This document shows, piece by piece, positions 4,616-64,000 of a DNA stretch of 64,000 nt. The translations under genes were made by a program, and so were the position numbers. The stretch comes from an uncultured Gammaproteobacteria bacterium (GTDB taxonomy: Bacteria > Pseudomonadota > Gammaproteobacteria > UBA9214). Location of the stretch: assembly GCA_963827755.1 (NCBI GenBank), contig CAWHCQ010000021.1, positions 105,428 to 169,427 on the forward strand. Reading direction: 5' to 3'. Each line of letters starts with the position of its first letter. Within the stretch, counting starts at the first letter, position 1. The notes below the pieces were generated by a model. It was not told the DNA's origin. It worked only from the letters and a program-made list of their open reading frames with translations, and did not search any database.

Positions 4616-4667
4616 CGGGGACGCAGACTGCCCGTTCTTCAACGGCCCGCAGGAAGCGGATAGTCAA

Positions 4668-5741: not shown

Positions 5742-5790
5742 GAAGACACCGGATGGTTTTATGAAGGCGTTGATCATATGCATGCAGTTC

Positions 5791-14393: not shown

Positions 14394-14395
14394 TC

Positions 14396-15239
<844 letters not shown>

Positions 15240-15271
15240 TTTTTACATTTGAACAGCACGTTACACTTTAG

Positions 15272-21626: not shown

Positions 21627-21653
21627 TAAAAAATCCCGGTGGCTTGCCGATAA
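21627..21653 (+). promoter_or_regulatory. sigma28 (FliA)-consensus promoter upstream of glmU
   Basis: TAAA-N15-GCCGATAA exact match, intergenic. Confidence 0.6.
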
Positions 21654-25457: not shown

Positions 25458-25874
25458 CTAGTCGATGGGGTCCTGCCACTTGACACGGTTACTCTTGCGC
25501 CGGTCCCTTTGTTCGCGGCGCTCGCTGTGGTCCGCTTCAAAGCGGACAGCCGTCCTGGGGTCAGCTCCCTGGCGGCGTTCCTGGTAGCGCCGGTTATTCA
25601 AGCCGGCATACACACAACTGCAGCGCAGCGCCCTGCACCCCTCAACCGGCAGTTCGGGGACGTTTTCAAGCTCATAAAAGCTGCCGGTAAAACGGCGTAC
25701 GGCCTTGCAGTTGCCGTTGCGAATGGTAATGCCGCGGTAGCGTTTACTGCGGCGCAGTTTTTCCAGGGAGGCCGCCTTTTTCCTGCGCTGATATGTACCC
25801 GTACAGCTCCAGGCGAACCATGCCAGCCCGGCCAGCGGTATGCCAAGAATCAGCAGTGTGACAATATCCGGCAT
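25458..25874 (-). CDS. Membrane-anchored hypothetical protein with Cys cluster and ERR/DRR repeats
   Basis: N-terminal TM, PELPVEGCRALRCSCVY, Arg-rich tail. Confidence 0.7.
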   Translation of the reverse strand: MPDIVTLLILGIPLAGLAWFAWSCTGTYQRRKKAASLEKLRRSKRYRGITIRNGNCKAVRRFTGSFYELENVPELPVEGCRALRCSCVYAGLNNRRYQERRQGADPRTAVRFEADHSERREQRDRRKSNRVKWQDPID

Positions 25875-26001
25875 GGCTTTCTCCCTGTTCTGCAATATGC
25901 AGCAGCGCACGGTCTGCATTGATGTTATGCGCCAGCACCGGTGCAATAATACCACCCCATCGGAAGGGGGTGCGCCCTTCTTTTTGGTAGAATCCCTGCC
26001 C

Positions 26002-39690: not shown

Positions 39691-42409
39691 ATGCCTGAAA
39701 AACAGTCCGGACCCCTGATACTGGTAGATGGTTCATCCTATCTTTACCGAGCCTTTCATGTTCCCCAGCTGCAGCAACTGACCGACTCGCGGGGTGAGCA
39801 GACGGGGGCGGCCTACGGCGTTATCAACATGCTGCGCAGCCTGTTGTCCGAGTACCGGCCGGAATACATGGCGGTGGTATTCGATGCCCGCGGCAAGAAC
39901 TTTCGCCACGAGATGTACAAGGAATACAAGGCCAACAGGCCGCCGATGCCGGACGAACTGGCCTCGCAGGTCGAGCCGCTGCATGCCATGGTGCGGGCGC
40001 TGGGTCTGCCGCTGCTGATCATCGAGGGCGTGGAGGCGGACGATGTCATCGGCACGCTGGCGCGGCGGGCCGCCGAACAGGGCATGCAGACGGTGATCTC
40101 GACCGGGGACAAGGATATGGCGCAACTGGTGGGGCCGCAGGTCACGCTGATCAACACCATGTCGCGGACCACGCTCGACCCGGCCGGGGTCGAGGAGAAA
40201 TTCGGCATCCCGCCCGGGCGCATCATCGACTACCTGGCCCTGACGGGCGACAGCTCGGACAATATTCCCGGTATCCCCAAGGTCGGGCCGAAGACGGCGG
40301 CAAAGTGGCTGACCGAGTATGGCTCGCTCGACGAAGTGATCGCGCATGCCGGCGAGATCAAGGGCAAGGTCGGTGAAAGCCTGCGCGACAACCTCGATAC
40401 CCTGGCACTGTCGCGCAAGCTGGTGACCATTGATTGCGATGTGGCGCTGGAACAGGCGCCGGAGCAATTGCGCATCCAGCCGGCGGACGTGGACGGCTTG
40501 CGGGAGTGGTATACGCGGCTGGATTTCAAGCGCTGGCTGGAAGAGCTGGGTGCTGGCGGGGAGGCGCCGCCAGCAACTGCCGACGGCGCCGCGACGAATC
40601 CGGAGTATGAAACGATTTTGACCCGGGACCAGTTTGCGGCCTGGCTGAAAAAGTTGGAGCAGGCCGAGCTGATCGCCATCGATACCGAGACCACCAGCCT
40701 GGAATACACGGCGGCGCGTATTGTCGGCGTGTCGTTTGCAGTCGCGCCCGGTGAGGCCGCCTACCTGCCGCTGGCACATGACTATGTCGGTGCGCCGGAA
40801 CAGCTGAACCGCGAGTCGGTGCTGCAGGAATTACGCCCGATACTGGAAAATAAAGATATCTATAAAGTTGGTCATAACCTTAAATATGACAGAAATGTTC
40901 TTGCAAATCATGATATTAAATTATCAGGCATACGCTTCGACAGCATGCTGGAGTCCTACGTGCTGGACAGCACCGCCACCCGCCACAACATGGATGCGGT
41001 GGCCCTGAAGTACCTGGGACACACCACCATCAAGTTTGAAGAGGTTGCCGGCAAGGGGAAAAACCAGCTGACATTTAACCAGGTACCCATTGAAACGGCG
41101 GCCCCCTATGCCGCGGAAGATGCCGATATTACCTTGCGCCTGCACCAGGCGATGTGGCCGAAACTGAGCGCTGTACCCTTGCTGGAAAAGATTTTCATGG
41201 AGGTCGAGATGCCGCTGGTGACGGTGCTGTCCGATATGGAACAGACCGGTGTCGCCATCGATATTGCCATGCTGGAAAAACAAAGCGAGGAACTCGCCAG
41301 ACGTATTTCAGAAATTGAACAGCAGGCCTGGGACGAGGCCGGGCAGTCGTTTAACCTGGGATCGCCGAAACAGATCCAGGAGCTGCTGTACGACAAGCTG
41401 CAAACTGCCGGTCATTTCCAAGACGCCGAAGGGGTCGCCTTCAACGGCGGAGTCAGTCCTCGCGGAGCTGGCGCTGGATTATCCCCTGCCGGCCATGATC
41501 CTGGAGTGGCGCTCCTTCAGTAAACTGAAGTCCACCTATACCGACAAGCTGCCACTCCAGGTCAGCCCGCATACCGGCCGCATACATACCTCTTATCACC
41601 AGGCCGTGGCCGCGACCGGTCGACTTTCATCATCCGATCCGAACCTGCAGAACATCCCGGTGCGCACCGGGGAAGGGCGGCGCATTCGCCAGGCATTTGT
41701 GGCAAAGCCGGGATGCAAATTGCTGGCGGCCGATTATTCCCAGATCGAGTTGCGCATCATGGCGCACCTGTCCTCGGACAAGGGTTTGCTGCAGGCCTTT
41801 TCGGAGGGTACCGACGTGCACCGGGCCACGGCGGCCGAGGTGTTCGGGGTGAAGCCCATGGAAGTCAGTGCCGAGCAGCGGCGCTCCGCCAAGGCGATCA
41901 ACTTCGGCCTGATCTACGGAATGTCGGCCTTCGGGCTGGCGCGGCAGCTGGGTATCGCGCGCGGTGCCGCGCAGGAGTATATCGACCTGTATTTCCAGCG
42001 TTATCCGGGGGTGCAGAGCTACATGGAGGCCACTCGCGAACAGGCTCGCGCGCAGGGCTACGTCGAGACCGTCTTCGGCAGGCGCCTGTATTTGCCTGAA
42101 ATCAAATCAAAAAATGGCCAGCGCCGGGCCGCGGCCGAGCGTACCGCGATCAATGCACCGATGCAGGGCACGGCGGCCGACATCATCAAGCACGCCATGA
42201 TCGACCTGCATGCGTGGCTTGGCTCGGACACCGGCCTCGACATCACCATGATCATGCAGGTCCACGACGAGCTGGTGTTCGAGGTGGCTGAAGCCGACCT
42301 CGAGGCTGCCCGGGCGCCGATTACCGCGCATATGTGCGCGGCGGCCGATCTCAAGGTGCCGCTGGTGGTCGATATCGGCAGCGGCGTAAACTGGGACGAG
42401 GCTCATTAG
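39691..42409 (+). CDS. polA: DNA polymerase I (frameshift near 41402)
   Basis: [41 protein letters not shown]. Confidence 0.98.
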
Positions 42410-46847: not shown

Positions 46848-46872
46848 GGCTGTTTACCTCTCTCATCTGAAT

Positions 46873-47698
46873 TCACTTAATAATGCATCTGTCATTGCTG
46901 TCATTGCTGTCCTGCGACTGCTGGCGCTGTTGCCGCCTGTTCCACCATGCACCGAGTTGTGCATAGCCGATGACGGAAATGATCGGGAACAGGCATGGCA
47001 AAGGCGATCAGCCCAAAACCGTCGAGCAGCGGGCTGCGTCCCGGAATGGTGCTCGCCAGCCCGATTCCGAGTGCTGCAACCAGCGGCACCGTCACGGTGG
47101 ACGTGGTGACACCGCCCGAGTCGTAGGCCAGCGCGATGATCATGCGCGGTGCAAACAGTGTTTGAATGACCACGACGATATAGCCGGCGATGATGTAGTA
47201 GTGCAGCGGGGTGCCGGTGACAATACGGAAGGTGCCGAGTGCAATACCGATGGCCACGCCGATCGCAACGGCGACACGCAGGCCCCAGACGCTGATGGCA
47301 CCGGCTGGAAACCTGGTTGGCCTTGATGGCCACGGCGATCAGCGCGGGTTCCGCAATGGTGGTGGAAAAACCGATGGCCGCGGCAAACAGGTAGACCCAG
47401 GTGTAGTCGCTCCAGTGCAATGCACTGGCGGGCACGTGCAGCCGCACCGCTGATGAATGCCGGGTCGGTCAGTTGCTGTGCCATCAGCTTGCCGATCGGG
47501 AACAGCGCCTCTTCCAGGCCGACGAGGAACAGTGTCAGGCCAACCAGCACGTAGATAAAGCCGATCAGCACGCTTTTCAGGTTGCGGGATACTCTGGCGC
47601 AGCACCAGCAACTGGAAGCCGAAAATGATGGCAACGATGGGCAGGACATCCAGTACCGTCGACAGGCCCGTGTGTAACAGGTGTGCCAGCAGTTCCAT
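46873..47698 (-). CDS. DUF1538 membrane protein (multiple frameshifts)
   Basis: [42 protein letters not shown] across frames. Confidence 0.85.
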
Positions 47699-48429
47699 CA
47701 GATGATCATGCCGTAGGCCATGACGAAGATCATCGGGGTCAGCGAGGCAAATGCGATCAGGCCGAAGCCGTCGACCATCGGGTTGCGCCCCTTGATACTT
47801 TCGGCAAGACCGACACCGAGTGCCGTGACCAGCGGTACGGTGACGGTGGAGGTGGTGACGCCGCCTGAATCATAGGCAATGCCGATGATTTCCGGTGGTG
47901 CGAAGGCCGTCATGATCACCACGCCGATATAGCCACCGATAATCAGGTACTGGATCGGCCAGCCCCTGACAATGCGGTAGACACCGGCGACGATGGCGAA
48001 GCCGACGGACAGTGCCACGGTGATGCGCAGGCCCAGGGCATAGCTGTCGATGGCCTCGGGCTGGTCCGCGATGGCGCCACCAGCCGCCGCAATCCGGGCG
48101 GCCTCACCGGCCACCGCGGTCAGTGCCGGTTCGGCGATCGTGGTGCCGAAACCGAGCGCAAAGGCAAATACCAGCAGCCAGGGGAGGTTTGCCTTGCGTG
48201 CGAAGGCATAGGCAATGGATTCACCGATCGGGAACAGGGCCTGTTCCAGGCCGCGGACGAAAAACGCCAGGCCCAGCACGACCAGCAGACAGCCGCTGAT
48301 CACGCGCGCCAGGTCGGGGAACGGCTGCTGTATGACGACCAGCTGGAAGAAGGCCACAACCAGGACGATTGGCAGCAGGTCGCGCACGCTGGAGAGAATG
48401 GAATCAATAAAGTGGCGTAGCTGTTCCAA
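47698..48429 (-). CDS. DUF1538 membrane protein
   Basis: [39 protein letters not shown]. Confidence 0.9.
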
Positions 48430-48915: not shown

Positions 48916-51395
48916 CTAGAGGTCCGTGTGCCGCAATCTCAGGGAATTGCTGATCACCGACACCGAGCTGAAGCTCATTGCCACGGCCGCGATCATCGGC
49001 GATAGCAATATCCCGAACAGCGGATACAGCACACCTGCCGCGATCGGCACGCCCAGCGAGTTGTAGATAAACGCGAAAAACAGGTTCTGCCGGATATTGC
49101 GCATGACTGCACGGCTCAGGTGCCGCGCCCGCACAATGCCGCGCAGGTCGCCTTTCACCAGGGTAATGCCCGCACTTTCCATGGCGACATCGGTACCGCT
49201 GCCCATCGCAATGCCGACATGTGCCTGTGCCAGTGCCGGCGCGTCGTTGATGCCATCGCCGGCCATGGCGACGGTGCGGCCCCCGGCCTGTAACTGCCTG
49301 ACGATATCCGCCTTCTGCTGCGGCAGGACCTCGGCCTCGACGCGGTCGATGCCGAGTTGTTCGGCAACGGCCATGGCCGTGGTGCGGTTATCGCCGGTCA
49401 GCATGACGACCTCGATACCTTCCGCGTGCAGCTTGAGAATGGCCTCGCTTGCAGAGGCCTTGACCGGATCGGCCACACCGATCAGCCCGGCGGGCTTGCC
49501 GTCAATTGCAACGAACATGACGGTCTGCCCTGCCGCGCGTCCTGTTTCGGCCTGTTGTGCAAGGGTGTCAGGATCGATGCCGAGATCTTCGAGCATCTTT
49601 CTGTTGCCAAGTGCCACCGGCCGCCCGTCAACCTTTCCGCTAACGCCCTTGCCGGTTAGCGCTGCAAATGCATCCGTTTGCTGCAGGCTGATACCCCTGG
49701 CTTGTGCGCCTTTTACTATTGCCCCGGCGAGTGGATGTTCACTGGCGCGTTCCAGGCTGGCGGCGAGCCGCAGGACATCCGTTTCTGTAAAGTCCGCGGT
49801 GGTTTCGACGCTGACCAGCACGGGTTTTCCTTCGGTCAGTGTACCGGTCTTGTCGACCACCAGGGTGTCGACCTTCTCCATGATTTCGAGCGCTTCCGCG
49901 TTTTTGATGAGTACCCCCAGGGTTGCGCCCCTGCCGGTGCCGACCATGATGGACATCGGCGTGGCCAGGCCCAGTGCGCACGGACAGGCGATGATCAGCA
50001 CGGCCACGGCATTGACCACGGCGTGGGCCAGCCGTGGCTCGGGGCCCCAGCAGGCCCGACACGACAAAGGCGCTGACCGCAACCGCGACCACGGCCGGCA
50101 CAAACCAGCCGGCAACGACATCCGCCAGTCGTTGTATCGGGGCGCGCGAGCGCTGTGCTTCACTGACCATCTGCACGATTTGCGCAAGCAGGGTGTCACT
50201 GCCGACTTTCTCGGCGCGCATCAGCAGGCTGCCGGTGCCGTTGACGGTGGCGCCGATGACGGCGTCACCCGTGGATTTTTCACGGAGATGGCTTCACCGC
50301 TGACCATGGATTCATCGACCGCGCTGTTGCCGTCCGGTGACGACGCCGTCCACCGGGATTTTTTCGCCGGGGCGTACGCGCAGCACGTCACCGGCCTGCA
50401 CCTGTTCGCAGCGGAATATCGGTTTCACTGCCATCCTCGTGAACGATGCGTGCGCGGTCGGGCGCGAGCCCCATTAACAGCCTGATGGCGGCGTTGGTCT
50501 GCCCGCGTGCACGCAACTCCAGCACCTGGCCGAGCAGCACCAGGGCGACGATGACGGCCGCCGCCTCGAAATAGACGGCAACCGTGCCATCGGCATGCTG
50601 CATGACGGGCGGGAAGACGGCGGGTGCCAGCAGGGCGACGACGCTGTAGCTCCAGGCGACGCTGACACCCAGCCCGATCAGGGTGAACATGTTGAGGTTC
50701 CAGCTGAGTACGGATTGCCAGCCGCGTACCAGGAATGGCCAGCCACCCCAGAGCACGACCGGGGTCGCCAGCAAAAACTCGATCCACTGGACCCGCACCA
50801 TGGTCAGACCGGCGGGCAGCAGGCCGGGCTGCATGTCGGCAATCATGGCGAGCACGAACACCGGCAGCGCAAGCAGCGTGCAGACCCGCAAGCGCCGGCT
50901 CATATCGATGAGTTCCTCGTTTTTTTCCTCGACGCTGACCGTGCGCGGCTCCAGCGCCATGCCGCACTTCGGGCAGCTGCCCGGTTCATCCTGCACGACC
51001 TCGGGATGCATCGGGCAGGTGTACTCGGTGCGCGTTTCCGGCGGGCGCACGGCTTCGGGCTCCAGCGCCATGCCACAAGACGGGCAGGCCCCCGGACCCT
51101 GCTGCCGGACCTCCGGACACATGGGGCAGATATAGTCGGTGGACGCGCCGGCTGGCGGTGCGGCCGCCGGTTCGGCAGGCGGGTTCAGGTAATGTTCGGG
51201 GTCGGCGGCAAATTTCCCCTGGCAGCCGCCGCAGCAGAAATAGTAATCGGTGTTTCGGTAGGCATAGTGGTGTTCGCTTGCCGTGGTGACGGCCATGCCG
51301 CACACGGGGTCAGTCAGCGCTGCTGTGGGTTCACCCTGTGCGTGACAGCAGCCCTGTTGGTCCACTGAACCGTCTGTTTTATTTCCGTCACGCAT
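48916..51395 (-). CDS. copA: Cu(I)-type P1B ATPase with YHS and CPM(H/C) metal-binding domains (frameshifted)
   Basis: [48 protein letters not shown]...MSFSS. Confidence 0.9.
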
Positions 51396-51609
51396 GCTGG
51401 TCTCCTTTGGCGCGCGCCTGCTGGATCGGCGGGCAGGGTAGCGTACCGTAGGAGCAGAACACGCAGCAGTCCCCCGGCAGGGGTTTGAGCAGCGCGCCGC
51501 AGTGCCTGCATTCGTGGTAGTACAGGCACCTGTCCACGGGCATGGTCTCGCTGGACCGATGCCCGCATTGCGGGCAGGTCAGTTCCGATATCAGTTCAAC
51601 GTCCGGCAT
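51388..51609 (-). CDS. GDCCVxC-domain small Cys-rich protein
   Basis: CPQC...CRHC...PGDCCVFCSYG; GAGGAG RBS; overlaps the copA start. Confidence 0.9.
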   Translation of the reverse strand: MPDVELISELTCPQCGHRSSETMPVDRCLYYHECRHCGALLKPLPGDCCVFCSYGTLPCPPIQQARAKGDQHA

Positions 51610-51730
51610 GGATGGCTCCTCTTTCTCACATTGTGGTCCAGTCATGCCCTGATAAATACATATTCCCGCCATCAACAGCGTAGCACCCCGCCGTCACGAG
51701 CGTAGCCCCTGCCATCTCCAGGTGGCATCC

Positions 51731-51759
51731 CGTCATCGCGAGCACAACACGGCAATCCC
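51731..51759. repeat. Degenerate GTCAT(T/C)GCGAG...GCAATC palindromic repeat
   Basis: CGTCATCGCGAGCACAACACGGCAATCCC. Confidence 0.4.
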
Positions 51760-51986
51760 CCGAATTTGCCCGCTGCCCGAATGAGCGCCGCAGCGCAGTC
51801 CTTGAAAACCGCGCAGCCACGCTTTTGGCAGACGCACACGCTGCGGTATCCCTGCAAGCCATTGAATCAACATCAAATACGGCTTATTGCCCCCCCGGCC
51901 GCCGTGTGCCCGCCTGCTCAAGCTTGTCAACATCCGGTCGTTATTATCGTGTAATCCACACTAATGGGTTGGGACCGGTCCTGCCA

Positions 51987-53843
51987 ATGAATTTAACAAG
52001 CCTGAAAAATACCTGGAACAGGGAGCGTCTCGGGCTGCTGATGATCCTGGCCTCGCTGGGTGTTATTAGCGTGATCGTCAGCATGCTGTTCATTAACCAG
52101 CAGCGTTCCGAAGAGGTCCATATACGCGAGCAGGGCGCCAGCCTGGTGCGCCTGCTGTCGCGGATGCCGTTCTCCGAGGTCGTCCCCGGGGATGGCTCGC
52201 AGGGCGTCCTCTCCGTGCTCGAGAATATCAAGGAGAGGTCGGCGTTCTCCTACCTCGCGATCGTCGATACCGATAACCGTCTGCTCTCGGAGATTATCCT
52301 CCCGGGCGTGGTGGTGCCTGCTGCCCCGTTGTCGGCGAACCCCGCCTCCTGGCTCGGTGAGCGGATGCTCGCGCAGGCCGATAACGGAAACGAGATCACA
52401 GAATTCCATGCACCACTGCTCGATAACGGCCTGCTGGCCGGGCATGTCCGGCTCGGCTTTCTGAAGCCCGGCATCGGGATCGGCATCGAACAGCTGCCGT
52501 TCCTCGCGACGCTGGCGCTGCCGATTTTTCTGCTGACGCCGCTGTTCTATTTCCTCGTGCGCCGCGAGGTGCGGCCGCTGCAGAAGGTCAACCGGCAACT
52601 CGACGAACTGGTCGAACGCGGCAGCCTGAACAAGGTGGAGATCAGCGCGACCGGTGAAATGAAGGAATTCATGGGACGCTTCAACGGGTTCATCGATTCG
52701 GCCCGCGAGCGGATCAACCGGCTGGAGTCGGAAAAAAATACCCTGGAAACGTCCACGAAGCTGCTTTCCTACAACCGCTCGCGCATCGATTCAGTGCTGC
52801 AGTCCCTGCCGGATGCGGTCATGGTAATGGATGAGTCAGGTACCGTAAGCCTTGCCAATGCCAGGTTCAGGAGCCTGCTGGGTGTACCGCTGGAAAACGT
52901 CATCGGCAAGCGGCCGCTGGACTGGTCAAAAGACAAGAACCTGGTCGCCTTTCTGGCGGGCTGCAGCGGTAAATCAGGCCGCGGCTTTAGCCTCGAAAGG
53001 TTCGTGTATTCGCCCGAGCGCTCGCCGGAAAAGTCGATCGCCGTCATGCCGCTGCCGCTGTTTTCTCCAAAGGATGACAGCCAGGTGCTCGGTGCGCTGG
53101 TGGTGTTCCGCGACATTACGGCGGAAACACTGGCCAAGCAGAGCAGCAGCGCATTCGTTGCGCACGTCGCGCACGAGCTGAAATCACCTCTGAATATTAT
53201 TGCCATGTACAGCGAAACCATACTCGGAGAAGATGGCGAGAGTCCGGAATTCCGTATCGAGGCCGGCAATATAATTCACGACGAAACAGAAAGGCTGTCG
53301 GGGCTGATCGACAACATTCTCAATATCACCAAGATCGAGATGGGCGGCATTGCGCTCGACCGGCAGCGCTGCAAGATCGGCGAAATGCTGCAGGATACCT
53401 TCGACGCCTGTGCCCGTGACATGCGCGGCAAGGAACTGGACCTGCAGATCAATATACCCCATGAGATGAGCGCGGTCTCGATCGACAAGAGCCTGCTGCG
53501 TATCGCGGTGAATAACCTGCTGACCAACGCCATCAAGTACAGTAACGCCGGCGGCCAGGTGACCCTGTCGGCTGAAGAGAACGATATCACCATTCTCATC
53601 AAGGTCAGGGACAACGGTATCGGTATATCAGCAGAAGAGCAGGAAAGGATTTTCGACAAGTTTTACCGCTCGGAGTCAGCAGCAGCGCAGAACCGCAACG
53701 GCCATGGCCTCGGACTGGCGCTGGCGCGGGAAATCGTCCACCTGCACCACGGCACGTTGAGGCTCGAGAGCACGCCGGGCGAAGGCTCCGAGTTCGTAAT
53801 CGAGTTCAGAAAAGAAACACAATTATTGAAGCAGGCGGTGTGA
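51987..53843 (+). CDS. Membrane sensor histidine kinase (HAMP-PAS-HisKA-HATPase)
   Basis: Two TMs, AHELKSPL H-box, NLLTNAIKY, DNGIGI, GHGLGL. Confidence 0.93.
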   Translation: MNLTSLKNTWNRERLGLLMILASLGVISVIVSMLFINQQRSEEVHIREQGASLVRLLSRMPFSEVVPGDGSQGVLSVLENIKERSAFSYLAIVDTDNRLLSEIILPGVVVPAAPLSANPASWLGERMLAQADNGNEITEFHAPLLDNGLLAGHVRLGFLKPGIGIGIEQLPFLATLALPIFLLTPLFYFLVRREVRPLQKVNRQLDELVERGSLNKVEISATGEMKEFMGRFNGFIDSARERINRLESEKNTLETSTKLLSYNRSRIDSVLQSLPDAVMVMDESGTVSLANARFRSLLGVPLENVIGKRPLDWSKDKNLVAFLAGCSGKSGRGFSLERFVYSPERSPEKSIAVMPLPLFSPKDDSQVLGALVVFRDITAETLAKQSSSAFVAHVAHELKSPLNIIAMYSETILGEDGESPEFRIEAGNIIHDETERLSGLIDNILNITKIEMGGIALDRQRCKIGEMLQDTFDACARDMRGKELDLQINIPHEMSAVSIDKSLLRIAVNNLLTNAIKYSNAGGQVTLSAEENDITILIKVRDNGIGISAEEQERIFDKFYRSESAAAQNRNGHGLGLALAREIVHLHHGTLRLESTPGEGSEFVIEFRKETQLLKQAV

Positions 53844-54253
53844 TCATGAAGCGTATCCTGATTGTTGATGATGAACCACATGTAATCCGCGTGATGCGCC
53901 TGGCGCTGGAGCGGGCCGGCTACGAGATAAGGGAGGCGGGAAACGGCGAGGTGGCGCTGCAGCGCATTGCCGAGGAAATTCCCGACGTCATGATCACGGA
54001 TATCGATATGCCGCGCATGAGTGGTGAAGCACTCTGCATGGAAATACAGCGCACGATGCCGGAGCGGACATTCCGCATCTACGTGCTGACAGCGCGCGCC
54101 GAGCTTGAACACCGCGAGTGGTCGGCAGCCATGCCCAACCTGGATTTTATGGAAAAACCCGTCAGTATCCGCAAGCTGATTGCGCGCCTGGAGAACTTTT
54201 TCAGGGATGACTCCGAACAGGACCAACAGCCACGGAGCATGACCGCGCCGTGA
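53840..54253 (+). CDS. Single-domain response regulator
   Basis: ILIVDD, ITDIDMP, EKP. Confidence 0.92.
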   Translation: MIMKRILIVDDEPHVIRVMRLALERAGYEIREAGNGEVALQRIAEEIPDVMITDIDMPRMSGEALCMEIQRTMPERTFRIYVLTARAELEHREWSAAMPNLDFMEKPVSIRKLIARLENFFRDDSEQDQQPRSMTAP

Positions 54254-56445
54254 AGCCTGCCTGGTTCGATAGATACTTTTTCCTGCTCGAACGGCTGGTG
54301 CCGCAGGCAGAAGGCCTTGTGGCGTGTGATGCGACGGGGAAGGTCATATCCATGCAGGGCGGATCAGCGGATGTCTCGGTTGGCGACTACCTGCATATCG
54401 GCCCCGGCAGCGGCGTAGACGACGCAGACCAGCCTGCCGGTACAGCTACACTGAATGCCGCGGACGGCAGCGTGCTTTTCCGTCGCGATATTTCATGCAG
54501 TACAGGCACGCATGCCGGTGCCTTGCTGGTCTATATGAGCCCCGGGTTCCCGGCGGATGATCACGCTGCAATTCTTGCCTGTGCAGAGTCGATCGATGCG
54601 GTAGCCGACTGCATCGCCAGGGAGAACGACCTGACAGCCGAGCTGGATGCGATGTCGCAGGAGCTGGCCGGTCGTTACGAAGAGCTGAATCTCGTCTATG
54701 ACACCAATGACGATGTCATCGAGTATCATCATGAAGTCGACACCATCAATCAGTTGTTGCGCAACTGCGTCGAGTACCTCGACGTCGGACTGGTGGCGCT
54801 GATTTCACCCGGGCAGGATCCAATTCACTACGCGGTATCGGCATCAGACCCGGTCATGGATCCGTATCCCCTGCTGAGTTCTTTTTCCCCGGACCTTTTT
54901 TCCAGGCTGAGTTTCGACCAGTCGTGCCTCATTTTCAATAAAGTGCCGGACCCGCTGCGCGCGCCCCTGTCGCTTGATATTCCCTTCAAGGTGCTTACCT
55001 GTCCGGTGGTCAATGCCCAGGGCGTGGTTATCGCGGGCCTGGTGTGTCTGAACCGCCTGACGAGACCGGATTTTTTCAACAGCGACAAGAACCTGCTTGA
55101 CGTCATGTCCCGAAAGGTTTCGAAAATAATCCAGGTGAACCACGATGCCATGACCGGCCTGATCAACCTGCGGGCTTTCACCTTCGTCCTGCAGGATGCG
55201 ATGAATTCAGCGCGCACTAAAGGCGCATCCTACATTTACCTGAATATCGATCTCGACCAGTTGAGCATCGTCAACGACAACTTCGGGCGTACAGCGGGTG
55301 ATGCGGCGATCAAGCTGGTCGCGGAACTGCTGAAAGACAGGTTGCGCACGAAGGACACCATCAGTTACCTGGGCGAGGGCCGCTTCGGTATTCTTCTCGA
55401 GGCAGGGTCGCACGACCAGGGTATGAAGATCGCGGAAAACCTTTGCGCGGCCGTGGCGGAAACGCCGCTCGTACGGGAAGAAGAATCCGTCGAATTGAGC
55501 ATCAGTGTCGGCATGACGCTGATTGGGCCGGACGCAAAGAGTACGGATGCCATACTGGAGGCGGCCGAGCTGGCCCGCGATGCCGCGAAAAAGGCAGGCA
55601 GGAACCAGGTCAAGGTGTACAAGAACGACAGCAGCGAACTGACCGAGCGCAAGGAACAGATGCAATGGGTTGGCCGCATCCAGAATGCAATACGCGAAAA
55701 CAGGCTGGAGATCCATTGCCAGGAAATCCGGCCCACGACAGCAACAGGCGAGAAATATCACTTCGAAATACTGGTGCGCATGTGTGGTGACGACGGTGAA
55801 ACCATAGCGCCGGGTATGTTTATTCCGACGGCAGAACGATACAGCCTGATGCCCGCACTGGACCGCTGGGTAATCGACGCGAGCTTCGCGCTGCTGCAGA
55901 AAAACGGCATGGCACAGCACGCGCAGGAAGGCGTCGTTTCCATTAATTTGTCCGGCCAGTCGCTGGCAGACGAAGGGCTTGTCGGGTACATCGGGGAAAT
56001 GTTCAGCAAGTACTACCTGTTGCCGGACTGTATCTGCTTCGAAATTACCGAGACGGTGGCCTTCGGCAACATGGAGCTCGCCAGGGATATCATCAACCAG
56101 GTAAGAGCGATGGGCTGCCATTTCTCACTGGATGATTTCGGTACGGGGCTGAGCTCATTCAGCTACCTGAAGGAGTTGCCGGTCGATTATCTGAAGATCG
56201 ACGGCTCCTTCGTGCGCATGATCCTGGAAGACAATATCTCGCACGCCATGGTGTCTTCCATTAACCAGATCGGCCAGGTGATGGGCCTGAAGACCGTCGC
56301 TGAATTCGTCGAGAACGAGGAAATCGCCCGCGAGCTTGCGGTGATCGGGGTCAATTACCTGCAGGGATACTCGATTTGCGAACCGCTGCCGCTGCAGGAG
56401 TACCTCGATAACAACGGACTGGTAGCGGTATCCAGGACAGCCTGA
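54250..56445 (+). CDS. GAF-like / degenerate GGDEF / EAL c-di-GMP phosphodiesterase
   Basis: GEGRF replaces GGDEF; EIL, FEITET, DDFGTG, KIDGSF, AEFVE, QGY intact. Confidence 0.9.
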   Translation: MKPAWFDRYFFLLERLVPQAEGLVACDATGKVISMQGGSADVSVGDYLHIGPGSGVDDADQPAGTATLNAADGSVLFRRDISCSTGTHAGALLVYMSPGFPADDHAAILACAESIDAVADCIARENDLTAELDAMSQELAGRYEELNLVYDTNDDVIEYHHEVDTINQLLRNCVEYLDVGLVALISPGQDPIHYAVSASDPVMDPYPLLSSFSPDLFSRLSFDQSCLIFNKVPDPLRAPLSLDIPFKVLTCPVVNAQGVVIAGLVCLNRLTRPDFFNSDKNLLDVMSRKVSKIIQVNHDAMTGLINLRAFTFVLQDAMNSARTKGASYIYLNIDLDQLSIVNDNFGRTAGDAAIKLVAELLKDRLRTKDTISYLGEGRFGILLEAGSHDQGMKIAENLCAAVAETPLVREEESVELSISVGMTLIGPDAKSTDAILEAAELARDAAKKAGRNQVKVYKNDSSELTERKEQMQWVGRIQNAIRENRLEIHCQEIRPTTATGEKYHFEILVRMCGDDGETIAPGMFIPTAERYSLMPALDRWVIDASFALLQKNGMAQHAQEGVVSINLSGQSLADEGLVGYIGEMFSKYYLLPDCICFEITETVAFGNMELARDIINQVRAMGCHFSLDDFGTGLSSFSYLKELPVDYLKIDGSFVRMILEDNISHAMVSSINQIGQVMGLKTVAEFVENEEIARELAVIGVNYLQGYSICEPLPLQEYLDNNGLVAVSRTA

Positions 56446-56530
56446 CCATGGCACCGCAGTTACAGGCCGGCCGGCAGATCTTGAGAGCGCAAAAGGCGCT
56501 TCACACGAGTGCCGCCGGTGAGGGCCCTTC

Positions 56531-58576
<2,046 letters not shown>

Positions 58577-58587
58577 AGAGCTGACAG

Positions 58588-59712
58588 ATGCCCATCGAAA
58601 TCACCCGGTCCCCCGGCGCCGCCGACCTGAAACCTGCAGAGAAGCCTTCCCGTTCGCTGAATTCCCTGTTCAAAAAAAAGCCGGGCATGCAGGACCGTAT
58701 GTTCTTTACCGAACAGTTGTCGTTGTTGCTGGAGACGGGGACTGCACTGCACGTGGCACTGCAGGCGCTGAAAAAACAGGTCGAGAATCCAGCGATGGCC
58801 GCGATCATCGATGGCCTGTATGAAAAGATCACCGAGGGCAAGTCGCTGTCGTATGCACTGGCGCAATACCCTGAGCTGTTTCCGGCAACCTATATCAACC
58901 TGGTGAGCGCTGCAGAAGACGGCGGTTTCCTCGACCGGGTACTTCTGGAACTGATGCGCATGGACGAAAAGCGCGATGAACTCCGCAGTACCGTGGTATC
59001 GGCGCTTTCCTACCCGGCGTTCCTGGTCGGCTTCTCCATCTTCGTGGTGATCTTCGTGCTGGTTGCGGTGTTTCCGAAATTCGCGGACATGTTTGCCAGC
59101 ATTGCCGACAGGCTGCCGGCGACCACGATTATCCTCATGCAGGCCAGCGAGGTGCTGGTCAATCACTGGAAGCTGATCCTCGCCGGCGTGGTTGCGGCTA
59201 TCAGCCTGCTGGTCTGGTGGTTGCATACACCGGCCGGAAAAATGCTGCTCGATGGGCTCAAGCTCAGGGTCTACGGCGTGCGCGATATCTTTATCCAGAT
59301 CTACATCATCCAGTCGCTGCGAGTCCTCGGCCTGTCCATGGGCAACGGCGTCAGCATCCCGGACGCGCTGGCCTCCTGCCGGGAGGTGGTCAGCAACCGG
59401 GTATTCCAGCGTTTTCTCGTTGACGTGGAACACAAGGTCAACGAAGGCTCCGGTTTTGCGATCGCCTTCCAGCAGGCAGACTTTATCCCCCCCACCGTCA
59501 AGCAGATGGTGACCACCGGTGAAGAGACCGGCAACCTGCCGCGTGTCCTTGGCCGGGTCGCGGACTACTATGAACGCGAGCTGGCGAAAAAACTCGCCGC
59601 CTTCTCGCGCATGGTCGAACCCATCATGCTCATCGTCATGGGTGGCGTGGTCGGCCTGATCGTCAGCTCCCTGATCCTGCCGATCTTCAAGCTGTCGCAG
59701 GCCGTCGGTTGA
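58588..59712 (+). CDS. GspF/PilC-family platform protein
   Basis: FTEQLSLLLETG, ALSYPAF, GEETGNL, VEPIMLIVMG. Confidence 0.93.
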   Translation: MPIEITRSPGAADLKPAEKPSRSLNSLFKKKPGMQDRMFFTEQLSLLLETGTALHVALQALKKQVENPAMAAIIDGLYEKITEGKSLSYALAQYPELFPATYINLVSAAEDGGFLDRVLLELMRMDEKRDELRSTVVSALSYPAFLVGFSIFVVIFVLVAVFPKFADMFASIADRLPATTIILMQASEVLVNHWKLILAGVVAAISLLVWWLHTPAGKMLLDGLKLRVYGVRDIFIQIYIIQSLRVLGLSMGNGVSIPDALASCREVVSNRVFQRFLVDVEHKVNEGSGFAIAFQQADFIPPTVKQMVTTGEETGNLPRVLGRVADYYERELAKKLAAFSRMVEPIMLIVMGGVVGLIVSSLILPIFKLSQAVG

Positions 59713-59770
59713 TACCCCGTGATTGTGCGCAAGACGCATCTTCCCCAAATCGAGTGGGTAGATTACCGTT

Positions 59771-60081
59771 GTAGGGCCGAATTCATTCGGCCAACACGCC
59801 ATTATTGCCACTGATGACAAGCAGGTCACCCTGTCCTGCGACGCATTTGTAGGGCCGAATTCATTCGGCCAACCGGCCTACGACGCATTGCGCAGGAGGT
59901 GTCATTCCCTGCACCATCAAGTCTATTGCATCACCACGGTTACCCGCGGTCGTCACCTTTGGATGAGTGATGACGATGAAACACCGCTGGTCGAATGAAT
60001 TCGACCCTACAGGTGCGATTGGGAAACACCGCTGGTCGAATGAATTCGACCCTACGGCAGGGCCGAATTCATTCGGCCAAC
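59771..60081. repeat. GTAG-family REP cluster (five units)
   Basis: G(T/C)AGGGCCGAATTCATTCGGCCAAC at 59771, 59849 and 60057; inverted units inside 33-bp direct repeats 59978-60010 and 60023-60055. Confidence 0.85.
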
Positions 60082-60252
60082 AACCTTGCCATCAGAAGGA
60101 ATGTGTCTCGTCTAAATTGATGTGTTACCCACTCAATCAGGGGAAGAGCCAATATTACTAATTCTGCAGGTTGATCGAACTCCGTGGTCGGCCCCGGCAC
60201 CGGCGATAGGAAAATTCGAGCCCAACCCGTGGCTTACGGTCATAAAAAACCT

Positions 60253-60279
60253 TAAAGAAGCGATTTAAGACGCCGATAA
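60253..60279 (+). promoter_or_regulatory. sigma28 (FliA)-consensus promoter of the major pilin gene
   Basis: TAAA-N15-GCCGATAA exact match, ending 70 nt before the ATG. Confidence 0.7.
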
Positions 60280-60348
60280 CCACTTCATAGTACGGAAAGA
60301 TATACAGGCTGATTAATGATTTTTGACTACATAACGCGGAGAAACACC

Positions 60349-60948
60349 ATGACAACGCAACCATCTTCTCACAGCAGGCAATCCGGCTTCACCCTGGTCG
60401 AATTACTGATCGTCGCCATCATCCTGGCGATCCTGGCGGCCATCGTCGTGCCGCAGTTCGCCTCGTCGACGGACGACGCGCGTGACTCGGCCCTCAGGTC
60501 CAACCTGTCCGGCGTTCGCAGTGCCATTGATCTGTACACCCAGCAGCACGGCGGTACATTCCCGGCTGCGGTCGCGGCGACCGGCGGAACCTGTACCGGC
60601 GGTACCGGAGACTCGGGTGCTGTTGATACCGACGAGGCCTTTGAGAACCAGCTGAGGTACTACACCAATGCCGCAGGCCAGGCCTGCAGTATCGCGGATA
60701 TTGGTGCCGATGGGTCAATTGAATTTCCGTTCGGTCCCTATATCAAGGGTGACCTGCCCGATAACCCGGTGAGCCAGATTGGCACCATCGCCATGGTCAC
60801 GACCGGCAACCTGGCAATGATCGGTGTCGGTGACAGCACCCTCCCCACACCAACCGCCGGTGGCTGGCGTTATGATACGACCTCGGGCAAGTTCATCGCC
60901 GATGATGTTGGCCTTGACGGCAATGGCGTCGCGTACGACAAGTACTAA
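60349..60948 (+). CDS. Major (pseudo)pilin, GspG/MshA-like
   Basis: G|FTLVELLIV class III signal, GGAGA RBS, two Cys. Confidence 0.9.
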   Translation: MTTQPSSHSRQSGFTLVELLIVAIILAILAAIVVPQFASSTDDARDSALRSNLSGVRSAIDLYTQQHGGTFPAAVAATGGTCTGGTGDSGAVDTDEAFENQLRYYTNAAGQACSIADIGADGSIEFPFGPYIKGDLPDNPVSQIGTIAMVTTGNLAMIGVGDSTLPTPTAGGWRYDTTSGKFIADDVGLDGNGVAYDKY

Positions 60949-60986
60949 GTACGTTACCAGCATGGAACCAGTGATTAATCATCCAG

Positions 60987-61544
60987 GTGAGGGCGTTGCG
61001 TAGTCATGGCGTAACACTTGTCGAACTGCTGGTGGTTGTCTCAATATTGGGGGTCGTCGCGTTGGTGGCGATCCCCAATTTGTCTTCCGGGGGCGCAAAA
61101 CGCCTCGACCTGGCGACCGCCGAGGTGGTGGCCGCCGTACGTTATGCGCGCAGCGAGGCGCTGCGCAGCGGTCAGATCCACGGTATCCAGATCAGCCAGG
61201 CTACGCAACGCGTGGTGGTCTACAAGGCCGATCTTGCCACCGACCCGGTCAGCATGGCGGTGATCCTCAGCCACCCGGTGGATCACAAACCCTATGACTT
61301 CGATTTCGATACCGCGGCGATGACGGCAGGCGTCAGCATCAGCAACGAGGATGACCCGTTTGTCTACTACGTCGCCGGCCGCCGCAAGAACCTGTTGTTC
61401 GACGCGAGTGGCCAGCCGGTCTGGATCGTGTCCGGCACCGGTACCACCTGGCCCCTGGAGGATGGCATGATTCAGCTCGACTACCGCAGCCAGCAGCGCA
61501 TCGTGCGGGTCGCAACGCTTACCGGCCGGGTGAGTGTCGAATGA
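60987..61544 (+). CDS. Minor pilin, GspH/FimT-like
   Basis: G|VTLVELLVV, RYARSEA, TGRV. Confidence 0.85.
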   Translation: MRALRSHGVTLVELLVVVSILGVVALVAIPNLSSGGAKRLDLATAEVVAAVRYARSEALRSGQIHGIQISQATQRVVVYKADLATDPVSMAVILSHPVDHKPYDFDFDTAAMTAGVSISNEDDPFVYYVAGRRKNLLFDASGQPVWIVSGTGTTWPLEDGMIQLDYRSQQRIVRVATLTGRVSVE

Positions 61545-62062
61545 TCAAATCCTGTCCAGATGTGCGTATGCGCCAGGCGCGGCCTGTGCCGGCAGCTACA
61601 GCCCCGCTGCAGAATACGGCACCAGCCTTGCGGCGCATGGCCGGTTTCACCTATATCGAGGTGATCGTCGCCACCGCGCTGATCGTCATCAGCCTGGTAC
61701 CTGCACTCGATGCCCTGTCGATCGGCGTCAAGGCCGGTACTGTCCATGAATCAACCACCGTGGACCACTATTACCTCACCGCCAGGCTGGAGGAATTGCT
61801 CTCGGAACCCTGGAACGAACTCGATGCCGAGGCGCTCGCGCTCAACAACCCGAATACCCCGTCGGCCGTATATTCCGGCAGTGTGGCAACGCCCGATGGC
61901 CGCACACTGGTACGCCAGGTCTACCTGTCCCGCTACGACGCCGACAATGCCGATGCGGATGATGATTTTTTCACCGGTACCGATGAAGGTCTGCTCTGGG
62001 TCAAGGTGGAACTTGAAGGCATGGGACGCAGCCTGGAGCGCCTCACCTATGCCTATGAGTAG
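61541..62062 (+). CDS. Minor pilin, GspI/PilV-like
   Basis: G|FTYIEVIVA after a long leader. Confidence 0.8.
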   Translation: MIKSCPDVRMRQARPVPAATAPLQNTAPALRRMAGFTYIEVIVATALIVISLVPALDALSIGVKAGTVHESTTVDHYYLTARLEELLSEPWNELDAEALALNNPNTPSAVYSGSVATPDGRTLVRQVYLSRYDADNADADDDFFTGTDEGLLWVKVELEGMGRSLERLTYAYE

Positions 62063-63055
62063 GGTGCATTCCATGCACCATTCCACTCCAGCCCAACACG
62101 GTTTCACCCTGGTCGAACTGCTCATGGCCATGGCCATCGGCACCATCCTGTTACTCTCAATCCAGGGCGTCGTTGGCCGCGGCATACAGACCCAGCAGGC
62201 GGTGCAGACCCAAAACGAACTCACCCGCCAGGCGCATTTCGCCATGCAGCAGATGGTGCGTGCTGTCGGCCGCAGCCGGCAGCTGGTGTTGCCGTTCGCG
62301 GAGAACCCGAACACGGCCTGGCCTGAATCGGTACGTGAATTTCCAGCGCGCGACCGCTTACCCCAATGAGACGGCCGTGCTGGCCGTGCTGCTCGACCCC
62401 GAGCAGGACCTGGATAACAATGGTTTTCCCGACGCCGACAATGACGAGGACGGGCGGATCGATGAAGACCCGGGCGGTGACAGCAGCAATGATCTGGCAC
62501 CCGGCCTGTTCGGCATCGACGACGACAATGACGGCAGTGTCGATGAGCAACATAGCCTGTCGCGGGGCCGGATCAACGAGGATGACGATGAAGACGACTA
62601 TGCCAATGAAGACCTGGTAAACGGCATCGATGACGACGGCGATGGCAAGCTCGATGAAGACATCAAGAAACAGACCGATGGCAATGACCTGTCCGGGGCG
62701 GGCGGCGTCGATGATAACGGCGATGGTCGAGATCGATGAAGACGACAAGAACGATGATGACGAGGACGGCAAGTGTCGATGAAGACTGGTACGATACGGT
62801 CGTCTTTTACCTCGACAACGGCAGCCTGAAGCAGCGTATCCCGATGCCGCTATGACGTGGACGGCGGCGGCATGAGTGGCAGGGATGTTGTCACGGAGCC
62901 CATTGCCGAAAACGTGATCCGCTTTCCGGGTCGAGCGCATCCCGCAGGCCAATGGCCGCGCCGTGCTGGTCGACCTGACGCTGGAGCTGACCAGTCCGTC
63001 TACGCGCGAGACGATCAGCCTGAACATGCGTGTGCGCGTCGGCGGTGCGTTGTGA
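62055..63055 (+). CDS. Minor pilin, GspJ/PilW-like, with Asp-rich repeats (frameshifted)
   Basis: G|FTLVELLMA; repeated DDDxDGx(I/V/L)DE(D); ends ISLNMRVRVGGAL-stop. Confidence 0.8.
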
Positions 63056-63140
63056 TGCACGTTGTCAGAAATCGAATATAACGGTGATGCGCGCATAATG
63101 CGAATGACACCGTTGTGCCCGCGTGCATGGCTAAGCACTA

Positions 63141-63222
63141 CCGTGCATTCCCGCGAATGCGGGAATGCCAGATGTATTAAACGATATTAAGTCCTGGATT
63201 CCCGCTCACGCGGCAATGACAA
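63141..63222. repeat. ATTCCCGCG..GCGGGAAT-type palindromic repeat doublet
   Basis: CATTCCCGCGAATGCGGGAATG and GGATTCCCGCTCACGCGGCAATGAC. Confidence 0.7.
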
Positions 63223-64000
63223 CGTTAGCCATCCAGCACCGGGAGCGCGGCTACATCCTGCTACCGGTGGTGCTGGCGCTGGCCTTGCTCGCCTCCATTG
63301 CCTGGCTGATCAACCGCGAAGGCGCCATCCATGCCGACATGGTCACCAACACGACGGAGGCCGTCATGGTCGAGCAGGTCGCCGCAGCCGGTTTGGCGCA
63401 CGCCACCTGGGCTATGCAGGGCAGCGGCTGCGCCGGCGACATGGCCATGTCGACGGCGGTACCGTTCGGTCAGGCGGGTACCGACAACTACACCGCCACG
63501 GTCACGACCCCGGGCGGCGGCACCTCCGCCTCCATCCTTTCCGTCGACCAGGATGCCTGGTTCCGCAGTGACCAGCCGGACGTCAACAATGGCGCCAAGG
63601 TTGATATGCACCTGCGCAAAGGTGACGGCGTGGGCACCGAGGTCGCGATGTACCGCTTCGACCTGTCATCCCTGGCGGCCGGCGCACAGATCAATTCCGC
63701 GGTCGCATGGTTCTATGTCACCTACGAGGCCGGCAAGGACGGCGGTCCGTACCCGGAGGGACCGCTGACCGTCCATAGCGTGACCGAGGACTGGGTCGAG
63801 ACCGGCCCCACGTGGGACAACATGAGTACCGCCTTCAGCGAAGAAATCATCGCCGTGATGCCCGCCGAGAGCGATGCCTTTGTCTGGGTGCGGGTCAGCC
63901 TCACGTCCCAGGTGCAAGCCTGGGTGAACGGCGCCGAGCCCAACTACGGCATCATGATCTGGCCGACCGGCGAGGGCACCCACGCCAAGCTCGTCAGCAA
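63216..64000 (+). CDS. PilX/GspK-like pilin fused to a DNRLRE-type beta-sandwich (runs off window)
   Basis: Hand translation: RERG|YILLPVVLAL, QDAWFRSDQPDVNNG, YRFDLSSL, WVETGPTW, VQAWVNG..NYG. Confidence 0.8.
   Translation, partial: MTTLAIQHRERGYILLPVVLALALLASIAWLINREGAIHADMVTNTTEAVMVEQVAAAGLAHATWAMQGSGCAGDMAMSTAVPFGQAGTDNYTATVTTPGGGTSASILSVDQDAWFRSDQPDVNNGAKVDMHLRKGDGVGTEVAMYRFDLSSLAAGAQINSAVAWFYVTYEAGKDGGPYPEGPLTVHSVTEDWVETGPTWDNMSTAFSEEIIAVMPAESDAFVWVRVSLTSQVQAWVNGAEPNYGIMIWPTGEGTHAKLVS

Follow-up and report, generated by a model that had tools for sequence, protein, structure and literature searches.

A cluster of pilus-like genes fills the end of the window analyzed here (the whole stretch of 64,000 nucleotides, taken from contig CAWHCQ010000021.1 of an uncultured gammaproteobacterium), running from position 51987 to the window end with all genes co-directional on the + strand in Pfam and NCBIfam scans. 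It represents a type IV filament (TFF) variant that is conserved and, it appears, has not been described before; its regulatory logic is predicted from its gene content. The complete operon set, conserved among relatives, has about 15 genes, of which the window contains the first 10. T2SSE, T2SSF and N_methyl domains are encoded together (Pfam), which is the combination that defines the generic TFF superfamily: an ATPase, an inner-membrane platform protein and a pilin with a class III signal (Denise et al. 2019, PMC6668835). With confidence slightly better than even, we read the system as a distinct type IV filament machine, a non-twitching adhesive pilus resembling the mannose-sensitive hemagglutinin (MSHA) pilus and gated by cyclic di-GMP (c-di-GMP). 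An earlier sequence-only reading of this stretch had proposed a single co-directional cluster at this position, comprising a kinase, a single receiver, a phosphodiesterase, a STAS-MshEN-ATPase, a platform protein, a major pilin behind a sigma28 promoter and four minor pilins; each of these genes is present on the + strand by open reading frame and by Pfam and NCBIfam, and the corrections that proved necessary are given below with the proteins they concern.

The gene set is a conserved unit, not a chance neighborhood. When residues 1-290 of the ATPase were used as a query, 163 proteins were returned, almost all of about 681 aa; about 100 of the best 120 of the 163 carry a STAS annotation in Pfam, and the named ones belong to uncultured Gammaproteobacteria. 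Fifty-nine genomic loci, cited below by L numbers, were retrieved with an alignment of the N-termini (A1). They come from metagenome-assembled genomes (MAGs) of Gammaproteobacteria and Ectothiorhodospiraceae, a Granulosicoccaceae isolate (L043), Rhodocyclaceae MAGs and one Desulfuromonadales MAG, with Ideonella paludis, several Massilia and Duganella aceris as the cultured carriers. When the loci were queried with the window proteins by tblastn, the kinase, opening the kinase-receiver-phosphodiesterase triplet, was found upstream of the ATPase in 52 of the 59, six of the seven misses being early contig ends, and the major pilin was found downstream in 48, all 11 misses ending before the pilin position. 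The order kinase, receiver, phosphodiesterase, ATPase, platform protein, pilin, three minor pilins and DNRLRE protein is kept in most of the 59. The relatives found belong to the Pseudomonadota, with one Desulfuromonadales MAG besides; the Planctomycetota, offered in the sequence-only reading as an example of where to look for the same gene order, do not appear among the 59 loci. Local departures from the order occur: L043 has its four minor pilins upstream of the kinase (2943-5804), in L028 the receiver adjoins the ATPase directly with no phosphodiesterase gene, and L047 has no kinase or receiver match within 10 kb upstream. Past the tip gene, the relatives continue with PilM_2, PilN, PilO, a small protein and a secretin of about 450 aa; PilM was found in 30 of the 59 loci and the secretin in 21, including L011, L012 and L039, which lie near the clade of the window. 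The open reading frames scanned across the window include neither a secretin nor a PilMNO gene, as the sequence-only reading had said of the secretin and alignment genes; they are missing because the window ends there, and relatives carry them just beyond that point.

The most distinctive protein is the assembly ATPase (681 aa; 56531..58576, + strand), in which Pfam and NCBIfam detect STAS, the NF053729 motif, MshEN and T2SSE. Its layout is a STAS domain at about residues 10-110, tandem MshEN motifs at 126-178, the alpha/beta part of MshEN at 180-264 and T2SSE at 296-677. The c-di-GMP motif of NF053729 scores 59 bits against a cut-off of 38, and residues 126-178 comprise both 24-residue motifs with a 5-residue spacer, as in the MshEN domain whose tandem c-di-GMP motif was described by Wang et al. 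2016 (PMC5013675). This tandem motif is found in 103 of 108 full-length family members, versus 21 of 107 of the nearest 50%-identity representatives. An AlphaFold2 (AF2) model of residues 1-295 has a predicted local distance difference test score (pLDDT) of 82.5, and Foldseek matches it to the c-di-GMP-bound N-domain of MshE (5htl) with a target-normalized template modeling score (TM) of 0.84-0.85. For the STAS part, PF01740 scores 28.6-32.2 bits against a cut-off of 22.6 and TIGR00377 scores 33.2 bits, under its cut-off of 53.45. A phmmer search of this region against the PDB returned designed repeat proteins only, plus SpoIIAA at E=0.35, and a fold search was required for confirmation; in the model the STAS part superimposes on SpoIIAA (TM 0.77-0.78) and RsbV (TM 0.87) by Foldseek, and the predicted structure of the N-terminal domain is a STAS fold. 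A STAS-fused pilus or secretion ATPase is not described in the literature searched, and the term "STAS domain" does not occur in the main texts of PMC5013675 and PMC11656802. Immediately downstream lies the inner-membrane platform protein of the GspF/PilC family (58588..59712, + strand), with T2SSF at 183 bits and the GspF equivalog at 291 bits against a cut-off of 424.

Upstream of the motor genes is a signaling triplet, whose third member is a predicted c-di-GMP phosphodiesterase of 731 aa (54250..56445, + strand; Pfam EAL 197 bits, GGDEF 90 bits). Some 290 aa at its N-terminus, which orthology marks as GAF-like, precede a GGDEF domain with the degenerate motif GEGRF and an EAL domain. It had been called a GAF-like/EAL protein; the EAL part is sound, the GGDEF domain had been missed, and GAF is carried by orthologs at the same position (L003, L043, L031, L040, L056), but not by the window protein, in which Pfam finds no match, GAF included, at E<=1 within the N-terminal 297 aa. 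The catalytic motifs of EAL phosphodiesterases are ExLxR, N, ExxE, DDFGTG, KxD, ExVE and QG. All are present here, EILVR and DDFGTGLS by pattern search and SINLSG, FEITE, LKIDG, AEFVE and LQGY as read from the translation, and on this motif list the protein is predicted to be an active enzyme. The window and 30 loci have an EAL-type third gene that keeps ExLxR and DDFGTG; its GGDEF motif is degenerate in some of these (GEGRF or REDRF) and intact in others. Of 27 loci of Burkholderiales/Rhodocyclaceae type, 24 have in this slot a GAF plus HD-GYP protein that carries HDVGK and GxGYP motifs. In L059 the HDVGK and GxGYP motifs fall in different frames, and in L028, L045 and L047 the slot holds neither EAL nor HD-GYP. 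Because EAL and HD-GYP, unrelated hydrolase folds, share one operon slot, c-di-GMP hydrolysis appears, from these sequences, to be its conserved function. A further predicted c-di-GMP enzyme, a separate 957-aa PAS-PAS-GGDEF-EAL protein with strong matches to both domains, is encoded at 32117-34990 on the - strand, about 17 kb from the cluster.

The triplet opens with a sensor histidine kinase (51987..53843, + strand; Pfam HATPase_c 100.7 bits, HisKA 50.5 and PAS 34.4), in which two transmembrane segments, read from sequence, flank a sensor domain of about 130 aa and are followed by a weak HAMP-like stretch, PAS, HisKA and HATPase_c. The description of this protein as a HAMP-PAS kinase therefore holds for PAS, HisKA and HATPase_c but not for HAMP, which stays below threshold (14.7 bits against a cut-off of 25, E=0.039); sCache_3_2 scores 13.8 bits, and an alternative TTG start lies at 51825. 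The second gene is a stand-alone, CheY-like receiver with no output domain (53846..54253, or from a GTG at 53840, + strand; Response_reg 86.2 bits), in which the phospho-acceptor residues DD, D52, T82 and K104 are invariant among 32 orthologs. That the first three genes overlap at their start and stop codons is borne out at both the kinase/receiver and receiver/phosphodiesterase junctions, each of which reads GTGA, and the GTG at 53840 overlaps the kinase stop codon. Complex prediction of the receiver (alignment A3) with the ATPase N-terminus (A1) returned a score of 0.00 in two runs, which is evidence neither way.

The fiber genes are set apart from the motor genes by a 600-nt gap between the platform gene and the major pilin. 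Five palindromic repeats of about 22 nt, resembling repetitive extragenic palindromic (REP) elements, lie within it at 59771..60078, three in one orientation and two in the other. No further copy is present in the 64-kb window and no Rfam family matches the repeat; they may serve as an insulator or terminator between the motor and fiber transcription units. An Rfam scan of 51300-64000 at E<=1 gave only a chance snoRNA match inside the palindromes and no c-di-GMP riboswitch before the pilin, and a sigma70 promoter scan of the + strand over the same interval found none. A sigma28 (FliA)-type promoter is predicted at 60253..60279 on the + strand, with the sequence TAAAGAAG-N11-GCCGATAA, 69 nt before the pilin ATG. 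Measured against the sigma28 consensus TAAAGTTT-n11-GCCGATAA (PMC2859248), it has 8 of 8 positions of the -10 octamer, 5 of 8 of the -35 octamer (TAAAG) and the 11-nt spacer, and its core pattern, TAAA-N15-GCCGATAA, is exact, in line with the sigma28-promoted major pilin of the sequence-only reading. Exact copies of that pattern number 2 in the 64-kb window, against 0.14 expected. The second, at 21627-21653, lies about 107 nt upstream of glmU (21760), just past the atp operon, and could be chance or a real sigma28 site.

When the best site within 260 nt upstream of the pilin was taken in the window and 46 loci, 10 had no mismatch, 8 had one, 8 had two and 21 had three or more. Thus a site with at most one mismatch is present in 17 of the 46 relatives (9 exact, 8 with one mismatch), versus 29 of 3000 random 280-nt windows. 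The good sites, which begin TAAAG, precede the pilin match by 44-99 nt, and the Ideonella loci carry TCAAG-N16-GCCGATAG at this position; the position of this predicted sigma28-type promoter is conserved among relatives. No proteobacterial case of sigma28-family control of type IV pili was found in the literature searched. Two further kinds of site were seen in the family. A weaker sigma28-like element (TCAAG or TAAAG, N15, then GCCGxTAx) precedes the kinase start by 35-75 nt in many loci, among them the window (about 51917-51943, 4 mismatches), L001, L002, L008, L013-L016 and L032, and it is exact in L016. Exact sites also stand directly upstream of pilM in L024 (17307-17333) and L025 (17720-17746), which belong to one gammaproteobacterial subclade, and this suggests a further sigma28-driven unit, as predicted from these sites, for the alignment and secretin genes.

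The major pilin (60349..60948, + strand) has an N_methyl match and a GGAG ribosome-binding site, with its start at 60349 rather than 60316. A 13-aa leader with the cleavage site G|FTLVELL yields a mature protein of 186 aa with two Cys and no DPWG, which agrees with the earlier description. Two Cys are found in 39 of 43 pilin orthologs, and most leaders have 11-13 residues. The pilin alignment (A2) has 38 sequences. An AF2 model of the pilin is confident, with a pLDDT of 88.8, and Foldseek returned nothing in the PDB at E<=0.001; the best matches are confined to the N-terminal helix, with EpsG at rank 14 (E=8.8). Its look-alikes in the Atlas belong to the N_methyl family only, save one cluster with T2SSG on 22% of its members. 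In the model, then, the pilin head is without a known fold among solved structures.

Four minor pilins follow, in the order of GspH, GspI, GspJ and GspK. The first is GspH/FimU-like (60987..61544, + strand; N_methyl, and GspH at 22.3 bits against a cut-off of 21), and its orthologs reach GspH at E=2e-8. A hairpin at 61046-61079, about 60 nt inside this gene, has a 15-bp stem with 8 GC pairs and a T-rich tail; it may attenuate minor-pilin expression or be due to chance. The second, at the GspI/PilV position (61541..62062, + strand), is small and has a weak N_methyl match (E=0.021), with orthologs at E=0.0016 and 0.00028; its position is conserved and its true start is probably nearer the MAG|FTYIEV motif. 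The third, at the GspJ/PilW position (62067..63055, + strand), carries an Asp-rich repeat insert and is spread over four frame segments; in its ortholog from L002 no repeat family was found in Pfam. The last is a tip-type pilin-like protein, of which the window end leaves the N-terminal 278 aa (63165..64000, + strand; NF033679 79.8 bits, CBM96 44 bits). It combines a PilX_N/GspK-like hydrophobic N-terminus with a DNRLRE/CBM96 module, CBM96 being a family whose founding member binds alginate (PMC9971899). Orthologs of the tip protein range from 312 aa to more than 1317 aa, and the one in L043 has a PilX_N start. That of L003 (16934-20884), longer than 1317 aa, has three CBM96 stretches and Disaggregatase repeats, and that of L056 (15164-17818), of 884 aa, has Kelch repeats. 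Four minor pilins with acidic and DNRLRE-type add-ons had been proposed, and all are there; the acidic pilin gene, however, is not intact, as is taken up below.

Class membership was judged by the NCBIfam equivalog cut-offs, with the secretin, PilM and alignment proteins, which lie outside the window, scored in the relatives. The ATPase scores 606.6 bits against the GspE model TIGR02533 (cut-off 630.25), which the STAS-family representatives P0121 and P0122 also fail to reach, and 577.4 bits against the PilB model TIGR02538 (cut-off 675.65). The major pilin scores 45 bits against the GspG model TIGR01710 (cut-off 88.85). In the relatives, PilM scores 65-107 bits (cut-off 133), PilQ 176-196 (cut-off 284) and GspD 172-180 (cut-off 351), and the secretins of L031, L040 and L043 score 130-151 bits against the MshL model TIGR02519 (cut-off 250.2). 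PilM_2, PilN and PilO stand where the type II secretion system (T2SS) has GspC, GspL and GspM, L043 shows weak T2SSM_b, GspM, GspC and T2SSB-like matches, and no PilT-like gene was found in the clusters scanned. The ATPase is equally similar to solved GspE, PilF and PilB (450-459 bits), and is 48.6% identical to E. coli GspE and 48.0% to HofB. Quick FastTree trees, built without the STAS columns and midpoint-rooted, with E. coli GspE and HofB as references and no labeled MshE, recover a STAS-ATPase clade of 25 of 82 rows (support 99) or 15 of 73 rows (support 100), with both references outside it. P0213 (681 aa), labeled STAS-type by its length alone, falls outside the clade in the 82-row tree and was left out of the 73-row tree. 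Among the 60 nearest representatives, where the nearest outgroup ATPases were labeled by NCBIfam scores, the PilB cut-off is reached by 0 and the GspE cut-off by 14, all of which lie outside the clade. By profile scores, therefore, the cluster fits none of the named pilus or secretion classes, MshE being compared through the N-domain 5htl only. The earlier placement outside T2SS, the type IVa pilus (T4aP) and MSHA thus stands on sub-cut-off scores and on a clade that excludes E. coli GspE and HofB, and for MSHA it draws on the MshL scores of the secretins in relatives, with the motor compared with MshE through that one domain.

Several observations weigh against reading this cluster as an adhesive filament machine gated by c-di-GMP, and the first of them point toward secretion. 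An hhalign comparison of the pilin with E. coli GspG gives 98% probability, over pilin residues 9-75 only, and a GspG-like N-terminus together with one GspH-like minor pilin makes a short pseudopilus conceivable. The system would then be a variant of type II secretion, in which a short periplasmic pseudopilus pushes folded exoproteins through the secretin and the CBM96/DNRLRE protein is a GspK-like cap or a substrate. The best single NCBIfam matches are indeed to GspE, GspF and GspG (606.6, 291 and 45 bits), and the GspH match in Pfam, the T2SSG annotation on 22% of one Atlas cluster and the weak T2SS-type matches in L043 are of the same tenor. However, the GspE, GspF and GspG scores are all under the curated cut-offs, the alignment proteins match PilM_2, PilN and PilO and not GspL or GspC, and the pilin head neither aligns with GspG nor has a match in the PDB. 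Moreover, the tip modules are large, variable and adhesin-like, unlike GspK (312 to more than 1317 aa, with Kelch repeats in L056), and the MshEN c-di-GMP motif is near-universal in the family. We consider the secretion reading unlikely.

A second group of observations concerns c-di-GMP. The turn Gly of each c-di-GMP motif is a Lys in the window ATPase (K, K), which falls outside even the relaxed [GAS] pattern of PMC5013675; in the family, Gly is kept at the first position in 78 of 103 members and at the second in 87 of 103. Because the turn Gly of both motifs is replaced by Lys, c-di-GMP binding by this particular ATPase is less certain, as judged by its motifs. In addition, the GGDEF motif of the third protein is intact in L016, L018, L019, L021-L026 and L029, and in these relatives the protein could also make c-di-GMP. 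Alternatively, the third protein would have no enzymatic role and would instead sense c-di-GMP or serve as an adaptor, binding to the ATPase in the way that FimX, through PilZ, binds Xanthomonas PilB. The degenerate GGDEF motif (GEGRF or REDRF) would suit such a role, there is the PilB-PilZ-FimX precedent (PMC8389850), and by Foldseek the MshEN part of the ATPase model matches the PilB N-terminus in the Xanthomonas PilB-PilZ complex 7lko. Against this, the EAL catalytic motifs are all present, and 24 of 27 loci have in its place an HD-GYP protein with HDVGK and GxGYP intact, an exchange that is sensible for a shared catalytic role; an adaptor is, to our mind, improbable.

The remaining difficulties are of several kinds. 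The sigma28 motif has three or more mismatches in most Massilia, Duganella and Rhodocyclaceae loci; no retraction ATPase, prepilin peptidase or diguanylate cyclase is found in the cluster; and experimental work on any family member was not found in the literature searched. Finally, the gene for the Asp-rich pilin has at least three frameshifts relative to the intact 351-aa ortholog, which is read in one frame in L002 (10630-11685). Other genes of the window are also split across frames: polA in two (39691-42409), uvrD/rep in three (25840-28175), a truncated atpB (14306-15271), a P-type metal ATPase gene (48916-51395) and a DUF1538 gene (46863-48429). Because polA, uvrD/rep and atpB are among them, assembly indel errors are likelier than decay for the Asp-rich pilin, and the frameshifts in the window are likely such errors rather than real pseudogenes. 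That the system is a decaying, non-functional remnant in this genome, with the J-position minor pilin a pseudogene, is what the frameshifts in 62067-63055 would suggest taken by themselves, but it is improbable, since random assembly indels explain all of the split genes better and the nine remaining genes of the cluster are complete and can be aligned with their orthologs over the whole length. The gene order mnmE, mnmG, rsmG, parA, parB, atp operon, glmU and glmS is found at 1-25000 of the window; this order is typical of the origin region of a proteobacterial chromosome, which would put the pilus cluster about 50 kb from the likely origin.

For the adhesive filament machine that we favor, a working scheme can be proposed, in which action of the phosphorelay, the phosphodiesterase and the STAS domain on the motor, and adhesion by the fiber, are predicted from synteny and domain logic. 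The motor genes, from kinase to platform, and the fiber genes, from the major pilin onward, would form separate transcription units. The flagellar sigma factor would drive the fiber unit, so that it is expressed with the late flagellar regulon and swimming cells are stocked with pilin. The ATPase would polymerize this pilin only with c-di-GMP on its MshEN motifs, as V. cholerae MshE does. The membrane kinase may sense an outside or redox cue and phosphorylate the lone receiver, which in turn would control the adjacent GAF-EAL or GAF-HD-GYP phosphodiesterase; the latter, by draining local c-di-GMP, would switch assembly off. The N-terminal STAS domain would provide a second, protein-protein input, and this is the least constrained step of the mechanism. 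Four minor pilins at the GspH, I, J and K positions would prime the fiber, and the last of them would display its CBM96/DNRLRE-type modules at the tip for binding to polysaccharide surfaces. PilM, PilN, PilO and the short secretin, encoded beyond the window in relatives, would complete the machine; a prepilin peptidase, and a retraction ATPase if there is one, would be supplied by other loci of the genome. A far bolder proposal for the STAS domain, reached by analogy and to our mind very unlikely to be right, is that it makes the motor a partner-switching node, binding or releasing an FlgM-type anti-sigma factor or the ATP-binding domain of the kinase according to c-di-GMP load or assembly state and so feeding back on the sigma28 promoter of the pilin. 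Its basis is the precedent of HsbA, a STAS protein of Pseudomonas aeruginosa that binds FlgM or the cyclase HsbD (PMC6482189). If true, such a motor would couple the flagellar program, local c-di-GMP and fiber assembly in one protein, and it would amount to a novel principle of regulation among the motors of type IV filaments, in a fiber class whose pilin head lacks a known fold.

TFF machines are sorted into T2SS, T4aP, T4bP (the type IVb pilus), Tad, MSH and Com. The standard census left 884 TFF systems "generic" (PMC6668835). The present cluster would define one unclassified TFF type, recognizable by a STAS-MshEN ATPase with an in-operon kinase, receiver and c-di-GMP phosphodiesterase, and further by a predicted flagellar-sigma promoter on the pilin and predicted modular, sugar-binding tip pilins. 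Its carriers include cultured and genetically approachable soil and water bacteria (Massilia, Duganella, Ideonella), and because these exist, the gating of a pilus motor by local c-di-GMP and by a partner switch is directly testable. The exchange of EAL for HD-GYP in a fixed operon slot is, moreover, a natural experiment on local c-di-GMP signaling.

Among known systems, HsbA offers a regulatory parallel: it too is a STAS module, and it ties sigma28 activity to c-di-GMP metabolism (PMC6482189). It is, however, free-standing and works with the kinase/phosphatase HsbR, whereas here STAS is fused to the motor and the cluster holds no Ser kinase or phosphatase gene. For the promoter, the parallel is in Rubrobacter, whose type IV pili are controlled by WhiG, of the sigma28 family, and in Actinoplanes zoospores, which show FliA-like control (PMC8325347). 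Both have pilus genes behind TAAA...GCCGATAA promoters, tied to c-di-GMP signaling (PMC8325347). These are Actinobacteria with another pilus cluster and the anti-sigma factor RsiG, whereas the carriers here are Proteobacteria and the promoter precedes the major pilin of a STAS-ATPase system. With T4aP the family shares PilM_2, PilN and PilO-type alignment genes and a secretin with an N0/STN domain, all found in relatives, and an ATPase as similar to PilB/PilF as to GspE; it differs in having its genes all in one locus with no PilT there, in a pilin head without a match and in leaders of 11-13 aa in most relatives. With T2SS it shares an ATPase and a platform protein closest to the GspE and GspF models, a GspG-like pilin N-terminus, a GspH-like minor pilin and four minor pilins in H-I-J-K order, but all scores are under the equivalog cut-offs, the pilin head is unlike GspG and the tip protein has adhesin-like modules. 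The MSHA system of Vibrio cholerae differs in that MshE has no STAS domain and no kinase-receiver-phosphodiesterase triplet is translationally coupled to the ATPase gene. It also has another gene order, including MshM and MshN, genes of a type not seen in the relatives of the present cluster, and its pilin MshA (9lab) is matched by our major pilin over the N-terminal helix only. Like the present cluster, the MSHA locus has an adjoining GGDEF-EAL gene, mshH. Both are single-locus type IV filament systems that bring a secretin and PilM-like genes of their own and lack a dedicated retraction ATPase, and in both the N-domain of the ATPase carries tandem motifs of the c-di-GMP type (PMC5013675), with the close structural match to 5htl already given.

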